Virus record (IMG/VR): IMGVR_UViG_2663763286_000024
Direction: 5' to 3' (one strand)
From: a virus
Taxonomy: Duplodnaviria > Heunggongvirae > Uroviricota > Caudoviricetes
Length of the DNA: 4,630 nt
The notes beneath the pieces are model-generated. The model did not search any database. It saw nothing but the letters and a program-made list of their open reading frames with translations, and was not told the origin of the DNA. This document shows positions 137 to 4,630 of the stretch, in pieces (the stretch's first letter is position 1; every line of letters begins with the position of its first letter). The translations under genes and the position numbers were made by a program.

Positions 137-161
137 TCTCCAGGAAACCCGGGGCGGTTCA
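137..161 (+). repeat. Right terminal inverted repeat (IRR) of IS copy 1
   Basis: Reverse complement of 137-161 is TGAACCGCCCCGGGTTTCCTGGAGA, against TGAACCGCCCCGGAAATCCTGGAGA at 4250-4274. Confidence 0.7.
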
Positions 162-238
162 CCCGGCAATTTCTGCAATCTGCGAAGCTGGCGATCGGTC
201 AGACTTAAATGCCTGACAACTTCAGTCTGCGTAGCCAC
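162..238 (-). pseudogene. Probable 5' stub of terminase small-subunit (Nu1/NohD-like) gene, truncated by the IS insertion at 161/162
   Basis: On the minus strand a GTG at 238-236 is preceded by GAGGTGAGGA (Shine-Dalgarno-like) and an in-frame stop one codon upstream. The frame then stays open for 25 codons (VATQTEVVRHLSLTDRQLRRLQKLP) to the IS junction. The start lies about 195 bp from the cosN end, matching lambda geometry where Nu1 starts about 190 bp from the left cohesive end. Sequence similarity to Nu1 was not verified. Confidence 0.25.
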
Positions 239-285
239 TCCTCACCTCGCAAAAACTCTCACCTCACAATTAGCACAAAACCGAT

Positions 286-384
286 CATGTCCGGTTTATA
301 TGTCCATTTTTTGCGCATGTCCGGTTCACGGAAAGCCCGTTCTTATATTTTTCATGTAGTTAACTTGCAGAGAAACCGGACATG
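286..384. repeat. cosB-like terminase-binding repeats: three copies of CATGTCCGGTT (two direct at 286-296 and 316-326, one inverted at 374-384)
   Basis: Exact 11-mer present three times. Positions relative to cosN (about 49-59, 107-117 and 137-147 nt) and orientation (nearest copy inverted relative to the other two) mirror the lambda R3/R2/R1 arrangement. The AT-rich spacer 327-373 lies where lambda has the IHF site I1. Confidence 0.6.
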
Positions 385-470
385 GTTCCCGGAAAATTTT
401 CATAAATAGCGAAAACCCGCGAGGTCGCCGCCCCGTAACCTGTCGGATCGCCGGAAAGGACCCGCAAAAT
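286..470 (-). other. cos site (cosB - cosN - cosQ side) of a lambdoid phage
   Basis: Reverse complement of 422-433 is GGGCGGCGACCT, the lambda 12-nt cohesive end. The roughly 45 nt on the cosB side (377-421) and 30 nt on the other side (434-465, CGTAACCTGTCGGATCGCCGGAAAGGACCCG) match my recollection of the lambda left and right termini with few differences. Confidence 0.75.
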
Positions 471-632
471 GATAATAATTATCATCTACATGTCACAACG
501 TGCATCTACGCCATCAAACCACGTCAAATAATTAATTATGACGCAGGTATCGTATTAATTGATCTGCATCAACTTAACGTAAAAACAACTTCAGACAATA
601 CAAATCAGCGACACTGAATACGGGGCAACCTC

Positions 633-827
633 ATGTCAACGAAGAACAGAACCCGCAGAACAACAACCCGCAACATCCGCTTTCCTAACCAAATGATTGA
701 ACAAATTAACATCGCTCTTGATCAAAAAGGGTCCGGAAATTTCTCAGCCTGGGTCATTGAAGCCTGCCGTCGGAGGCTAACGTCAGAAAAGAGAGCATAT
801 ACATCAATTAAAAGTGATGAAGAATGA
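633..827 (+). CDS. ylcI: Small basic ribbon-helix-helix-like DNA-binding protein (YlcI/DUF3950-like), 64 aa
   Basis: ATG at 633 with GGGG 7 nt upstream, 64 codons to TGA. Arg/Thr-rich N-terminus, then a predicted beta-strand (IRFP), helix (NQMIEQINIALDQ), G-x-S/N turn (KGSGN) and helix (FSAWVIEACRRRL), as in Arc/MetJ/CopG proteins. Size and position next to cos match the DLP12 ylcI locus as I recall it; the symbol is tentative. Confidence 0.6.
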   Translation: MSTKNRTRRTTTRNIRFPNQMIEQINIALDQKGSGNFSAWVIEACRRRLTSEKRAYTSIKSDEE

Positions 828-991
828 ACATCCCGCGTTCTTCCCTCCGAACAGGACGATATTGTAAATTCACTTAATTACGAGGGCATTGCAGTAATTG
901 AGTTGCAGTTTTACCACTTTCCTGACAGTGACAGACTGCGTGTTGGCTCTGTCACAGGTTAAGTAGTTTGAATGATTAGCAGTTATGGTGA

Positions 992-1198
992 TCAGTCAAC
1001 CACCAGGGAATAATCCTTCATATTATTATCGTGCTTCACCAACGCTGCCTCAATTGCCCTGAATGCTTCCAGAGACACCTTATGTTCTATACATGCAATT
1101 ACAACATCAGGGTAACTCATAGAAATGGTGCTATTAAGCATATTTTTTACACGAATCAGATCCACGGAGGGATCATCAGCAGATTGTTCTTTATTCAT
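992..1198 (-). CDS. ybcW: Small acidic hypothetical protein, 68 aa (YbcW-like lambdoid moron)
   Basis: ATG at 1198-1196 (minus) with GGAG 7 nt upstream, 68 codons. Synteny (between the cos-proximal RHH gene and the DUF1398-like gene near bor) and length match DLP12 ybcW and a lambda right-end ORF as recalled. AT-rich. Confidence 0.6.
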
Positions 1199-1246
1199 TT
1201 TGTCGCTCCATGCGCTTGCTCTTCATCTAGCGGTTAAAATATTACT

Positions 1247-1272
1247 TCAAATCTTTCTGTATGAAGATTTGA
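1247..1272. promoter_or_regulatory. Perfect 9-bp inverted repeat TCAAATCTT-N8-AAGATTTGA in the divergent intergenic region between the 68-aa and 136-aa genes
   Basis: Seen directly: 1247-1255 and 1264-1272 are exact reverse complements. Located 49 bp upstream of the minus-strand start at 1198. Candidate operator or 5' leader hairpin. Confidence 0.3.
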
Positions 1273-1483
1273 GCACGTTGGCCTTACATACATCTGTCGG
1301 TTGTATTTCCCTCCAGAATGCCAGCAGGACCGCACTTTGTTACGCAACCAATACTATTAATTGAAAACATTCCTAATATTTGACATAAATCATCAACAAA
1401 ACACAAAGAGGTCAGACCAGATTGAAACGATAAAAACGATAATGCAAACTACGCGCCCTCGTATCACATGGAAGGTTTTACCA

Positions 1484-1894
1484 ATGGCTCAGGTTGCCAT
1501 TTTTAAAGAAATATTCGATCAAGTGCGAAAAGATTTAAACTGTGAATTGTTTTATTCTGAACTAAAACGTCACAATGTCTCACATTATATTTACTATCTA
1601 GCCACAGATAATATTCACATTGTGTTAGAAAACGATAACACTGTGTTAATAAAAGGACTTAAAAAGGTTGTAAATGTTAAATTCTCAAGAAATACGCATC
1701 TTATAGAAACGTCCTATGATAGGTTGAAATCAAGAGAAATCACATTTCAGCAATACAGGGAAAATCTTGCTAAAGCAGGAGTTTTCCGATGGGTTACAAA
1801 TATCCACGAACATAAAAGATATTACTATGCCTTTGATAATTCATTACTATTTACTGAGAGCATTCAGAACACTACACAAATCTTTCCACGCTAA
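1484..1894 (+). CDS. ybcV: Hypothetical protein, DUF1398/YbcV-like lambdoid moron (136 aa from the ATG at 1484; the frame is open from 1361)
   Basis: The frame is open 1361..1894. The ATG at 1484 has a strong Shine-Dalgarno (GGAAGG at 1470-1475, 8-nt spacer) and gives 136 aa, matching the recalled length of E. coli YbcV. Alternative starts are TTG 1361 (177 aa) and ATG 1442 (150 aa, no SD). Strongly AT-rich compared with the neighbouring lysis genes. Confidence 0.7.
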
Positions 1895-2185
1895 ATCATA
1901 ACGTCCGGTTTCTTCCGTGTCAGCACCGGGGCGTTGGCATAATGCAATACGTGTACGCGCTAAACCCTGTGTGCATCGTTATTAATTATTCCCGGACACT
2001 CCCGCAGAGGAGTTTCCCTGTCAGGGCTGCGGACATAGTTAATCCGGGAATACAGTGACGATCCTTCGCATCTGACATACATTAATAAATATTAACAATA
2101 TGAGATTTCAACTCATTGTTTAGGGTTTGTTTAATTTTCTACACATACGATTCTGCGAACTTTAAAAAGCATCGGGAATAACACC

Positions 2186-2479
2186 ATGAAAAAAATGCTA
2201 CTCGCTACTGCGCTGGCCCTGCTTATTACAGGATGTGCCCAACAGACGTTTACTGTTCAAAACAAACCGGCAGCAGTAACACCAAAGGAAACCATCACCC
2301 ACCATTTCTTCGTCTCTGGAATTGGGCAGAAGAAAACTGTCGATGCAGCCAAAATTTGTGGCGGCGCAGAAAATGTTGTTAAAACAGAAACCCAGCAAAC
2401 ATTCGTAAATGGATTGCTCGGTTTTATTACTTTAGGCATTTATACTCCGCTGGAAGCGCGTGTGTATTGCTCACAATAA
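2186..2479 (+). CDS. bor: Bor outer-membrane lipoprotein (lambda Bor / Iss family, serum-resistance associated), 97 aa
   Basis: Translation MKKMLLATALALLITGCAQQTFTVQNKPAAV... matches lambda Bor as I recall it. Signal peptide with lipobox LITGC. Opposite strand to the lysis cassette and immediately downstream of Rz, as in lambda. Confidence 0.93.
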   Translation: MKKMLLATALALLITGCAQQTFTVQNKPAAVTPKETITHHFFVSGIGQKKTVDAAKICGGAENVVKTETQQTFVNGLLGFITLGIYTPLEARVYCSQ

Positions 2480-2486
2480 TTGCATG

Positions 2487-2510
2487 AGTTGCCCATCGAT
2501 ATGGGCAACT
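2487..2510. terminator. Hairpin (10-bp stem AGTTGCCCAT / ATGGGCAACT, 4-nt loop) between convergent bor and Rz; possible bidirectional terminator
   Basis: Perfect inverted repeat at 2487-2496 and 2501-2510, 8 nt after the bor stop and immediately after the Rz stop. There is no clear U-tract on either side, so the terminator call is weak. Confidence 0.35.
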
Positions 2511-2972
2511 CTATCTGCACTGCTCATTAATATACTTCTGGGTTCCTTCCAGTTGTTTTTGCATAGTGATCAGCCTCTCTCTGAGGGTGAAATAATCCCG
2601 TTCAGCGGTGTCTGCCAGTCGGGGGGAGGCTGCATTATCCACGCCGGAGGCGGTGGTGGCTTCACGCACTGACTGACAGACTGCTTTGATGTGCAACCGA
2701 CGACGACCAGCGGCAACATCATCACGCAGAGCATCATTTTCAGCTTTAGCATCAGCTAACTCCTTCGTGTATTTTGCATCGAGCGCAGCAACATCACGCT
2801 GACGCATCTGCATGTCAGTAATTGCCGCGTTCGCCAGCTTCAGTTCTCTGGCATTTTTGTCGCGCTGGGCCTTGTAGGTAATGGCGTTATCACGGTAATG
2901 ATTAACAGCCCAAGACAGGCAGACGATGATGCAAATAACCAGAGCGGAGATAATCGCGGTTACTCTGCTCAT
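2511..2972 (-). CDS. Rz: Rz spanin, inner-membrane subunit (i-spanin), 153 aa
   Basis: Translation [55 protein letters not shown]... matches lambda Rz as recalled. Start overlaps the R stop (ATGA). Confidence 0.93.
2570..2752 (-). CDS. Rz1: Rz1 spanin, outer-membrane lipoprotein subunit (o-spanin), 60 aa, embedded in Rz in the +1 frame
   Basis: Translation [60 protein letters not shown] has a lipobox (VVGC) and a proline-rich segment, and matches lambda Rz1 as recalled. Confidence 0.88.
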
Positions 2973-3445
2973 ACCTCAATCTCTCTGACCGTTCCGCCAG
3001 CTTCTTTGAATTTTGCAATCAGGCTGTCAGCCTTATGCTCGAACTGACCATAACCAGCGCCCGGCAGTGAAGCCCAGATATTGCTGCAACGGTCAATTGC
3101 CTGACGAATATCACCGCGATCAATCATCGGTAAAGCGCCACGTTCTTTAATCTGCTGCAATGCCACTGCGTCCTGGCTTTTGGGGGAGAAGTCTTTCAGG
3201 CCAAGCTGCTTACGGTAAGCATCCCACCAGCGTGAAAGAAGCTGATAACGTCCGGCTGCTGTTGATTTGAGTTTGGGGTTTAGCGTGACAAGTTTGCGAG
3301 GGTGATCGGAGTAATCAGTAAATAGCTCTCCGCCTACAATGACGTCATAACCATGATTTCTGGTTTTCTGCCGTCCGTTATCCGTTCCTTCTGACCATGC
3401 CACCATATCGAGGAAAGCTTTACGCTGAGGATTAAGATTTTGCAT
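2969..3445 (-). CDS. R: Endolysin R (lambda-type lytic transglycosylase), 158 aa
   Basis: Translation ...[46 protein letters not shown]... matches lambda R as recalled, including the catalytic-Glu region WSEGT. Only the first 7 residues differ (MQNLNPQ here, MVEINNQ in lambda as recalled). Start lies inside the 3' end of the holin gene. Confidence 0.93.
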
Positions 3446-3749
3446 TTTTCACCCCTGTCAGTCGTTCCCAGAAGTATGTCAGTGCAACCGAACCCATCGC
3501 ACCACTAATCCCCGCTGTCGCGAGAATCATGTAAATACTGAATCCACTTTCGATACTGATCAGGCCACCAATAACACCGGTGAATCCCGACACCACTATC
3601 TGAGCCAAAGCATTTATCCAGCTCCACGTTGCTTTACTCTGCTTCACATCTATCAGGTAGCGGACCAGACCGCCCCAACCTGCGATGATCAGCAAAACGA
3701 GCCAGAACGCTCCGGCAAGGCTCTCTTTTTCGTGCATATGAATAGCCAA
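3432..3749 (-). CDS. Holin, class I topology (three predicted TMDs), about 101-105 aa; not lambda S by sequence
   Basis: Sits in the S position directly upstream of and overlapping R. Three hydrophobic segments (LAGAFWLVLLIIAGWGGLV, WINALAQIVVSGFTGVIGGLI, FSIYMILATAGISGAMGSVAL) and a short charged C-terminal tail. The ORF-track start at 3749 is a TTG; the first ATG is at 3737 (codon 5). Sequence is unlike lambda S (MKMPEKHDLLAAILAAKEQG...). Confidence 0.8.
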   Translation of the reverse strand: MAIHMHEKESLAGAFWLVLLIIAGWGGLVRYLIDVKQSKATWSWINALAQIVVSGFTGVIGGLISIESGFSIYMILATAGISGAMGSVALTYFWERLTGVKNAKS

Positions 3750-3854
3750 TGTTTCGCCGCCGACAAAAGGCCGGGACGTTAAATGTCAGAAATCAGGCTC
3801 ACGGGGTAATTTAACGACAAAGCACGGAGTTGATGCTCCCCGCAAGCCTGGAAT

Positions 3855-3877
3855 AAAAAAGCCAGCATGTAGCTGGC
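3855..3877 (-). terminator. Rho-independent terminator on the minus strand (tR'-like), upstream of the holin gene
   Basis: Minus strand reads GCCAGC-TACAT-GCTGGC followed by TTTTTTATT (stem 3877-3872 and 3866-3861, U-tract 3860-3855). Lies about 105 nt upstream of the holin start, analogous to lambda tR' at the end of the 6S leader. Confidence 0.5.
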
Positions 3878-3953
3878 AACAGAGGGTTAAGCAATATCAA
3901 CTCAACAGCTGAAGACACCCTGGCTGGGGTACGTTGGAAGGATACTCACCGCC

Positions 3954-3989
3954 CAGAAACAGAAAAGCCCAAGGCTTTAAACCTCGGGC
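3954..3989 (-). terminator. Second hairpin plus U-rich tract on the minus strand (8-bp stem with one G-U, 7-nt loop)
   Basis: Minus strand reads GCCCGAGG-TTTAAAG-CCTTGGGC followed by TTTTCTGTTTCTG. Lies between the candidate late promoter and the tR'-like terminator. Confidence 0.35.
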
Positions 3990-4046
3990 TTGAATTTGGA
4001 TTACGGCCAGTGCGTACAACATTGGCAAAATATCAGATTTACATAA

Positions 4047-4075
4047 AATATATGATTTTTAATCCAGTTTTGCAA
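4047..4075 (-). promoter_or_regulatory. Candidate sigma70 late promoter (pR'-like): TTGCAA - 17 bp - TATATT on the minus strand
   Basis: -35 at 4075-4070 and -10 at 4052-4047 on the minus strand, with a predicted start near 4040, about 185 nt upstream of the terminator U-tract at 3855 (lambda 6S RNA is about 194 nt). A weaker alternative is TTGCCA (4028-4023) - 17 bp - CGTAAT (4005-4000). Motif inspection only. Confidence 0.3.
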
Positions 4076-4249
4076 TATCTTGCTGTGAAAATGTGGTCTT
4101 TTGTTTTGAACGTGTTTTCGTTAAAAGCAATAAAGCTTGGCTATCAAGCTGTAGAAAAATGTGCTTCATTGCAACCCAGCGTTCAGTAAATGTCTCAGAC
4201 CAGTTTTTTGATGTCACTCCCACCAGTGATGCCAACTCCTGGTATTCAT
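4059..4249 (-). pseudogene. 3' fragment of an ORF truncated by IS copy 2; positionally where the late antiterminator Q gene would be
   Basis: The minus-strand frame is open from the IS junction (4249) for 62 codons (EYQELASLVGVTSKNWSETFTERWVAMKHIFLQLDSQALLLLTKTRSKQKTTFSQQDIAKLD) to TAA at 4061-4059. It has no start codon, because its 5' part would lie beyond the IS. It does not resemble lambda Q as I recall it, so identity is unverified. Confidence 0.3.
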
Positions 4250-4274
4250 TGAACCGCCCCGGAAATCCTGGAGA
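4250..4274 (+). repeat. Left terminal inverted repeat (IRL) of IS copy 2
   Basis: TGAACCGCCCCGGAAATCCTGGAGA; 22 of 25 positions match the reverse complement of 137-161; TG...CA termini typical of the IS3 family. Confidence 0.7.
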
Positions 4275-4303
4275 CTAAACTCCCTGAGAAAGAGGTAAAC
4301 AGG

Positions 4304-4630
4304 ATGACTAAAAATACACGTTTTTCCCCCGAGGTCCGTCAACGGGCAGTTCGTATGGTTCTGGAAAGTCAGGGCGAATATGACTCACAATGGGCGGCAA
4401 TTTGTTCCATTGCCCCAAAGATTGGCTGTACACCAGAGACTCTGCGTGTGTGGGTTCGTCAGCATGAGCGGGATACCGGGAGTGGTGATGGTGGACTCAC
4501 CACCGCTGAACGTCAGCGTCTGAAAGAGCTGGAACGTGAAAATCGTGAACTGCGCCGCAGTAACGATATCCTTCGCCAGGCTTCCGCTTATTTTGCGAAG
4601 GCGGAGTTCGACCGCCTCTGGAAAAAATGA
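4304..4630 (+). CDS. IS3-family transposase OrfA (HTH DNA-binding and leucine-zipper protein), 108 aa
   Basis: ATG at 4304 with AGAGG about 9 nt upstream. N-terminal helix-turn-helix region and C-terminal heptad-like [25 protein letters not shown]. Ends with TGA at the window edge, directly after an A6 run (4622-4627) that would be the IS3-type -1 frameshift site into OrfB. Confidence 0.88.

Follow-up and report, generated by a model that had tools for sequence, protein, structure and literature searches.

The holin gene at 3432-3749 of the window (the whole 4,630-nucleotide stretch that was analysed) is an ordinary and already catalogued phage holin gene, located before lysis genes of the lambda type in an E. 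coli prophage that has decayed. The explanation that we favor as a whole, at a probability of about 80%, is that a common three-helix holin of the LydA/ST64T-gp13 family is carried by a mobile module, that homologous exchange took place inside the endolysin gene R, that the dual start of the holin is vestigial and that the cassette is probably unexpressed. The exchange of modules between lambdoid lysis genes belongs to textbook knowledge, and the locus adds no new kind of system: public databases already contain this protein, its family and this arrangement of genes, in hundreds of genomes. The analysis is of value for a precise map of the holin module, which starts near 3785 and ends at the holin stop codon with homologous exchange continuing within R, and for the recognition of an upstream TTG codon as the relic of a genuine dual start. 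Additionally, a natural allele series running from ATG-Lys-Arg through TTG-Ile-His to GCG-Ile-His could be used to study antiholin loss and lysis timing.

The features discussed below, all on the minus strand, are:

2511..2972 (-): Rz, inner-membrane spanin subunit; 153/153 residues identical to lambda Rz; Pfam PF03245 at 2.6e-54
2570..2752 (-): Rz1, outer-membrane lipoprotein spanin subunit, inside Rz in another frame; 60/60 residues and 183/183 nt identical to lambda Rz1; PF06085 at 2.9e-20
2969..3445 (-): R, lambda-type soluble endolysin (lytic transglycosylase) of 158 aa; 151/158 residues and 439/477 nt identical to lambda R
3432..3445 (-): holin/R overlap of 14 nt (ATGCAAAATCTTAA), in which the holin tail Lys-Asn-Ala-Lys-Ser-stop also encodes R codons 1-4 (Met-Gln-Asn-Leu)
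3432-3749 (-): holin open reading frame, 105 codons from TTG 3749
3432..3737 (-): 101-aa form of the holin from ATG 3737, identical to RefSeq WP_000544528.1; LydA/ST64T-gp13 family
3738..3749 (-): four extra in-frame codons TTG-GCT-ATT-CAT (Met-Ala-Ile-His); the equivalent in relatives is ATG-GCT-AAA-CGT (Met-Ala-Lys-Arg)
3755..3778 (-): hairpin of 9 pairs with one bulge, about -12 kcal/mol by RNA folding
3991-3965, 3877-3861 and 3844-3823 (-): three terminator-like hairpins between the promoter-like site and the holin
-35 at 4075, -10 ending at 4047 (-): late-promoter-like site from a consensus scan
4059..4249 (-): last 62 codons of antiterminator Q, 61/62 identical to the C-terminus of the 229-aa Q of phage PhiR47_2

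Family and predicted topology of the holin

A first-pass annotation of the sequence had described a holin frame opening at a TTG with its first ATG four codons later, and the coordinates of the open reading frame agree (first ATG at 3737, TTG at 3749). The translation is identical to that of E. coli S51, annotated there as WP_000544528.1, an entry labelled 'phage holin family protein' in RefSeq and also annotated in strains JJ1886 and 2013C-4974. The protein matched Pfam PF16083 (LydA holin, Phage_holin_3_3, 'holin superfamily III') with an E-value of 8e-22 over profile positions 2-78 of 78, its 77.6 bits lying above the curated gathering score of 28.4 bits that marks membership in the LydA family. 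It also matched phrog_785 (PHROG 785, holin) at 5.5e-40. A PDB sequence search with the holin as query returned no match.

Alternatively, the holin could have diverged within the lambda S family (PF05106), in which case no swap would have occurred. Both proteins are about 105 residues long with three hydrophobic segments, their N-termini are alike (MHEKESLAG versus MPEKHDLLAA) as are their C-terminal tails, and Pfam calls both families 'holin superfamily III'. Yet the comparison with lambda S by BLASTP gave E=8.6, and the holin had no hit against PF05106 even at E<=10 whereas lambda S matched that profile at 2.4e-30; cross-hits between PF16083 and PF05106 were absent in both directions (holin and lambda S, E<=10). 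A profile-profile comparison by hhalign of 16 holin relatives with 12 lambda S relatives yielded a probability of 2.6%, and the sole segment aligned was the tail, that is the last 15 residues. Furthermore, the similar termini coincide with module joints shared by the two families, which can account for them. With BLASTP, Pfam and hhalign all against it, and neither a profile nor a pairwise match relating the two proteins, the assignment to the lambda S family was rejected as highly improbable, in line with the first-pass view that this holin is unrelated to lambda S. By its profile matches, the holin belongs to the LydA/ST64T-gp13 family (PF16083), outside the lambda S family.

Escherichia phage PhiR47_2 encodes a holin 'S' (PV340567.1) whose 101-aa protein and start region are 100% identical to those of the window; its record annotates the 105-aa TTG form whereas RefSeq gives the 101-aa ATG form. 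This phage and the E. coli prophages with WP_000544528.1 share the gene order of the window (Q, holin, lambda-type R, Rz/Rz1, bor/iss). The window differs from PhiR47_2 in carrying two IS629 copies, one interrupting Q and the other the terminase side. Holins of Klebsiella phages are 85-88% identical to the window holin, gp13 of ST64T and of other P22-like Salmonella phages 73-74%, and the holin of Serratia phage Eta 66%. ST64T gp13, which the annotators of ST64T traced to PS3 gp13, and the Eta holin have the length, the three-helix pattern and the overlap with the endolysin start seen in the window, but sit before endolysin types other than lambda R and keep an intact dual start (Met-Ala-Lys-Arg-Met and Met-Lys-Arg-Met, respectively) with a strong ribosome-binding site masked by a hairpin.

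Lambda S (S105/S107) and P22 gp13 (PF05106) occupy the same late-operon position, are of similar size with three helices and have a soluble endolysin as partner. They also carry a hairpin and a dual start as in the relatives of the window holin, and a similar tail holding the endolysin start; across the membrane helices, however, no sequence relation to the window holin could be detected, and in the window the upstream start is degraded. P1 LydA, the namesake of PF16083, is linked to the window holin by the Pfam profile match only. It has been described with two predicted helices, and its partners are LydB, a separate antiholin, and a SAR endolysin (PMC9025707); the PF16083 family is thus not uniformly three-helix. 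The list of open reading frames of the window contains neither a lydB-like gene nor any extra gene between the holin and R.

Three transmembrane domains had been proposed for the holin, and hydropathy, charge pattern and an AlphaFold2 model all predict three helices. With Kyte-Doolittle and Hessa-scale windows, the 105-aa form showed hydrophobic peaks at residues 11-29, 48-66 and 72-90. The model, built from a 20-sequence alignment and of moderate confidence (pLDDT 71), places helices at 2-36, 44-68 and 72-98. Net charges read from the sequence of the 105-aa form are about -1 at the N-terminus, +2 in loop 1, -1 in loop 2 and +2 in the C-terminal tail, a pattern that by the positive-inside rule fits an N-out/C-in orientation. 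We therefore predict three transmembrane helices, N-out/C-in, and three hydrophobic helices with positive-inside charges are the features of a class I holin, here by prediction only. The topology of lambda S105 is established as three helices, N-out/C-in.

The holin would thus enter the inner membrane through its three helices with the N-terminus outside and the C-terminus inside, build up, and then open holes large enough for the soluble lambda-type R to escape, after which Rz/Rz1 would disrupt the outer membrane. Hole formation releasing a soluble endolysin is suggested by the soluble lambda-type R partner and by the presence of the same holin in phage PhiR47_2 (host E. coli C); neither R nor the T4-lysozyme-type partners of the relatives have a hydrophobic N-terminus. 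Since holin and start region are identical in PhiR47_2, a phage whose host on record is E. coli C, the allele is very likely functional.

Joints of the holin module and probable recombination in R

The lysis proteins encoded downstream of the holin had been described as nearly those of lambda, and the identities listed above confirm this for R, Rz and Rz1. The window is collinear with lambda from 3440 to 434 (lambda 45500-48502, to cos) at 97.4% identity; measured per 50 nt in sliding fashion, identity is patchy in R (86-100%) and reaches 98-100% from Rz on. Gene order and the identity of the partners are those of a lambdoid lysis cassette, Q being present only as a 62-codon fragment. R departs from lambda R at residues 2, 3, 4, 6, 15, 63 and 157, so that of the first seven residues, all of which had been reported to differ, M1, N5 and Q7 are in fact the same. 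It matched lambda lysozyme (PDB 1AM7) at 3e-102 and no Pfam-A family at E<=0.01; the RefSeq name of lambda-type R is nevertheless 'glycoside hydrolase family 24 protein', despite the 1AM7 match. The PhiR47_2 record splits R (3805-4280) into two CDS; compared with both the window and lambda, the frame is broken by an indel of 1 nt near R nt 268. This indel reflects either a mistake in sequencing or a genuine frameshift in a phage grown on E. coli C.

Compared with its relatives, the 14-nt overlap between holin and R is recognizable as a module joint common to the whole family. The holin tail carrying the endolysin ATG reads Gly-(Val/Met)-Lys-Asn-Ala-Asn-Gln-stop in relatives, and the same embedded ATG precedes endolysins of the T4-lysozyme, lambda-R, GH19 and ST64T-gp19 types, endolysin-specific sequence starting straight after the holin stop codon. 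Partners of the GH108 type differ in having a 4-nt ATGA overlap. The tails of lambda S and P22 gp13 are similar and contain the embedded start as well. The endolysins encoded after relatives of this holin are of at least five types:

T4-lysozyme-type endolysin: in Enterobacter, Citrobacter and Serratia loci and in phage Eta
Lambda-R-type endolysin: in the window, in E. coli prophages and in the Enterobacter locus L011
GH108 endolysin: in Klebsiella and some E. coli
GH19 endolysin: in a Hafnia phage
ST64T gp19-type endolysin: after ST64T gp13

The locus had been singled out as a holin swap. A non-lambda holin is indeed placed on a lambda-type R-Rz-Rz1 unit, but the arrangement is not special, being a common annotated cassette whose holin family is routinely joined to different endolysins. 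More than 300 complete E. coli genomes, O157:H7 and O55:H7 included, contain the 3.9-kb block 389-4249 with an identity of 98-99.9%. Of 5426 complete E. coli genomes, about 788, among them that of the ST131 strain JJ1886, match the 181-nt start region with an identity of at least 99%.

On the other side of the holin, the 5' joint, at about 3785, is a sharp one immediately before the hairpin, where upstream contexts of three unrelated kinds meet the same sequence: that of the window and JJ1886, that of strain S51 with an extra DUF3800 gene, and that of APEC O18. The sharing of both 5' and 3' joints implies a mobile unit composed of the hairpin, the start region, the holin body and the tail. Such a module would be bounded at its 5' side just upstream of the hairpin covering the ribosome-binding site and at its 3' side by the conserved tail with the endolysin start codon.

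PF16083-type holins and lambda S/P22 gp13 holins, whose membrane cores are unrelated, both have a hairpin-masked ribosome-binding site. Both also begin with Met-Lys-(Arg)-Met followed by Pro/His-Glu/Asp-Lys and end in a Gly-Val-x-x-Ala-Asn-Gln tail holding the endolysin start. These control elements were compared at the lambda locus L002 (1350-1392), at the P22 locus L106 (808-853) and in the holin tails. Short elements of this kind, common to both families, could represent conserved recombination joints.

A rival model, in keeping with the first-pass placing of the junction in the overlap, invokes a single illegitimate or microhomology-driven crossover within these 14 nt, between a lambda-like phage and a phage with this holin. 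The start of endolysin-type-specific sequence right past the holin stop in all family members and the beginning of megablast homology to lambda at 3428 agree with such an event. An analysis of informative sites comparing R of the window with R of lambda and of a single Enterobacter comparator (L011) gave a different picture. Over R nt 4-27 the window sides with L011 at 8 of the 9 sites that differ between lambda and L011, and up to nt 75 it matches L011 at five further sites; from nt 78 (about window position 3368) it follows lambda at nearly all of them. Overall, 98 informative sites agree with lambda, 19 with L011 and 8 with neither. In PhiR47_2, L011-like sites continue to about nt 117, and in Enterobacter L011 itself a holin of this type already overlaps a lambda-type R in the same way. 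The crossover model is therefore unlikely for this lineage: a join does exist in the overlap, as had been stated, but it is family-wide, and in the lineage of the window the switch to lambda-like sequence extends beyond the overlap, lambda-like sites dominating only from nt 78 of R.

The simplest reading is that R is a mosaic with about 75 Enterobacter-like nt at its 5' end and a lambda-like remainder interrupted by divergent patches, a graded switch indicative of homologous recombination in the interior of this gene. This holin type would then have been paired with a lambda-type R before the lineage of the window arose, and near-identity to lambda would have been gained through homologous recombination within R at points differing from lineage to lineage.

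A probably degraded dual start in the holin gene

In lambda, the sdi structure and the S107/S105 antiholin/holin pair are known, and the extra positive charge of S107 makes the longer form inhibitory. We compared the start region of the window with those of its relatives, a scan of genome contigs yielding 11 loci with holin relatives. A scan of viral contigs gave only near-identical E. coli-type loci, which are informative on start-codon variants and not on diversity. Since a MAFFT alignment of the start regions put the hairpin arms out of register, each sequence was folded separately.

Relatives begin with ATG-GCT-AAA-CGT-ATG (Met-Ala-Lys-Arg-Met) or with Met-Ala-Lys-His-Met, Met-Lys-Arg-Met, Met-Arg-Met or Met-Thr-Arg-Met, the first ATG lying 2-7 nt past a strong ribosome-binding site (GGAGG, GGGGG or GGGAGG). 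This site forms the 3' arm of a small hairpin whose arms vary by lineage (CACCCCG/CGGAGGTG, CCCC/GGGG or CCUCC/GGAGG). Folding placed a hairpin at the same position, with differing arm sequences, in 11 relatives, lambda S (CCCC/GGGG, Met-Lys-Met) and P22 gene 13 (CCUCAC/GUGAGG, Met-Lys-Lys-Met) among them. The E. coli relative L022 has a hairpin closely resembling that of the window, yet keeps ATG-Ala-Lys-Arg-ATG. In the annotation of phage Eta, a 'possible dual start motif' is noted, and dual-start holins as a group have been reviewed (Blasi and Young 1996, as cited in PMC3851460).

In the window, two candidate in-frame starts, TTG and ATG, lie four codons apart in place of the two ATG codons of relatives, and the hairpin at 3755-3778 holds in its 3' arm a weak ribosome-binding-like GGCGG located 6 nt ahead of the TTG. 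By analogy, this hairpin appears to be the counterpart of the lambda sdi stem-loop, since it covers the ribosome-binding site of the first start, although shuffling gave it modest support: the control returned 0.2-9% for most sequences and was uninformative for Eta and the Erwinia locus L013. It is to be noted that this control is crude, as the C-rich composition is preserved and the fixed 16-nt cut lands within short hairpins; fold z-scores of whole segments were not significant.

Pairing of GGCGG with the 3' end of 16S rRNA was computed at -5.0 kcal/mol, against -9.5 to -12.3 kcal/mol at the first start of relatives in the holin family; for the ATG at 3737 the value was -1.5 kcal/mol, which amounts to practically no binding site of its own. 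With 13 codons open from the upstream TAA to this ATG and about 3/64 per codon, some ATG, GTG or TTG would be expected by chance in about 46% of cases. The TTG, however, occupies the exact codon of the first ATG of relatives and is thus the positional homologue of a real start. In comparison with that start, the ATG and both basic residues are gone from the window, where little of the strength of the ribosome-binding site is left. The extra Lys or Arg of an S107-type longer form is absent from Ala-Ile-His, in contrast to the Ala-Lys-Arg, Ala-Lys-His, Lys-Arg or Lys of relatives. In a sister allele, that of APEC O18, GGAGG and Ala-Ile-His-Met are kept and the first start codon is GCG, and among 80 near-identical viral contigs the codon at this position was TTG in 73, GCG in 6 and GTG in 1.

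These observations bear on whether TTG and ATG work together as a dual start, the former giving a 105-aa antiholin or timing modulator and the latter the 101-aa holin. The exact position of the TTG, the occurrence of TTG or GTG in 74 of the 80 near-identical loci, and the retention of the hairpin and of a G-rich element 6 nt upstream would all be expected of such a system. On the other hand, Ala-Ile-His contains neither Lys nor Arg, the ribosome-binding site is weak (-5.0 kcal/mol), and GCG stands at the first start in APEC O18 and in 6 viral contigs with the same Ala-Ile-His-Met, which argues that this start is dispensable. A working dual start consequently seems to us improbable. If the TTG were used, a longer isoform without extra positive charge would represent a timing control unlike that of lambda S107/S105.

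We rather interpret the region as a decayed dual start. TTG and ATG are four codons apart with the TTG at the start position of relatives, but what had been suggested as an unusual arrangement is a degraded copy of the canonical ATG-Ala-Lys-Arg-ATG with its hairpin-masked site. Ancestrally, the holin family would have had a lambda-like dual start, the longer form bearing Lys/Arg being the antiholin; in the E. coli clade, the upstream start would have decayed to a TTG with a weak binding site and no basic residues. As inhibition in lambda needs the extra positive charge, a TTG-initiated product is not expected to act as a lambda-type antiholin, and the gene of the window most likely yields active holin only, with no lambda-style antiholin. 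The 105-aa form could nonetheless be the main product, the TTG lying 6 nt past GGCGG and the ATG being nearly devoid of a ribosome-binding site. The hairpin kept in the E. coli clade hints at continuing regulation.

A broader proposal is offered tentatively, and we would not count on it. It holds that the E. coli clade, found in about 15% of complete genomes and in PhiR47_2, might be a natural 'antiholin-less' derivative of a dual-start holin that has retained the hairpin masking the ribosome-binding site, and that the hairpin/dual-start leader and the endolysin-start tail common to two families with unrelated membrane cores might be the joints of holin exchange.

Truncation of Q and surroundings of the cassette

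Two copies of IS629/IS1203 that share one orientation flank positions 162-4249, one inverted repeat (right) ending at 161 and the other (left) starting at 4250. Q is cut by the left end of the second copy at 4250, where the inverted repeat TGAACCGCCCCGG is found, and E. coli homology ends at 4249. The stretch between Q and the holin that contains the promoter-like and terminator-like sites (3823..4075) is placed as in lambda and P22, and the consensus scan returned 5 terminator-like sites against 0.8 expected. From this arrangement, 3823..4075 is presumed to be the pR'/tR' leader that Q would antiterminate. Since IS629 has reduced Q to its last 62 codons and three terminator-like hairpins precede the holin, the cassette is probably silent in the window unless Q is supplied by another prophage.

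The IS copies occupy 1-161 and 4250-4630 of the window, the first cutting a Nu1-like terminase small-subunit gene and the second Q. On the minus strand, this Nu1-like gene opens with GTG 238 and is interrupted by the IS at 161. For both IS629 junctions, no single-piece match was obtained in 5426 complete E. coli genomes. Window positions 160-460 comprise the Nu1 fragment, cosB-like repeats (several copies of ACCGGACATG) and cos, and match at 100% a prophage locus different from the icd-linked prophage that, in the same strains, matches 389-4249 at 99.8%. As the two segments match different prophage loci in the same strains, two prophage lineages appear to have been joined at cos in the window.

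Neither the Rfam scan nor the tRNA scan gave a hit in the window. Beyond Rz/Rz1, the minus strand carries bor, a DUF1398 gene (ybcV/lambda p78), ybcW/lambda p79, ylcI and the cos region. The bor gene (2186-2479) encodes a product 96/97 identical to lambda Bor, and its position is annotated iss (increased serum survival) in the ExPEC strains JJ1886 and S51; the virulence-associated iss/bor gene thus travels directly behind the lysis cassette. The DUF1398 gene (1361-1894) is listed among the open reading frames of the window with 177 codons from a TTG; the RefSeq form in strain 2013C-4974 has 136 codons, and in the lambda record the 177-codon form has a GTG as its start.
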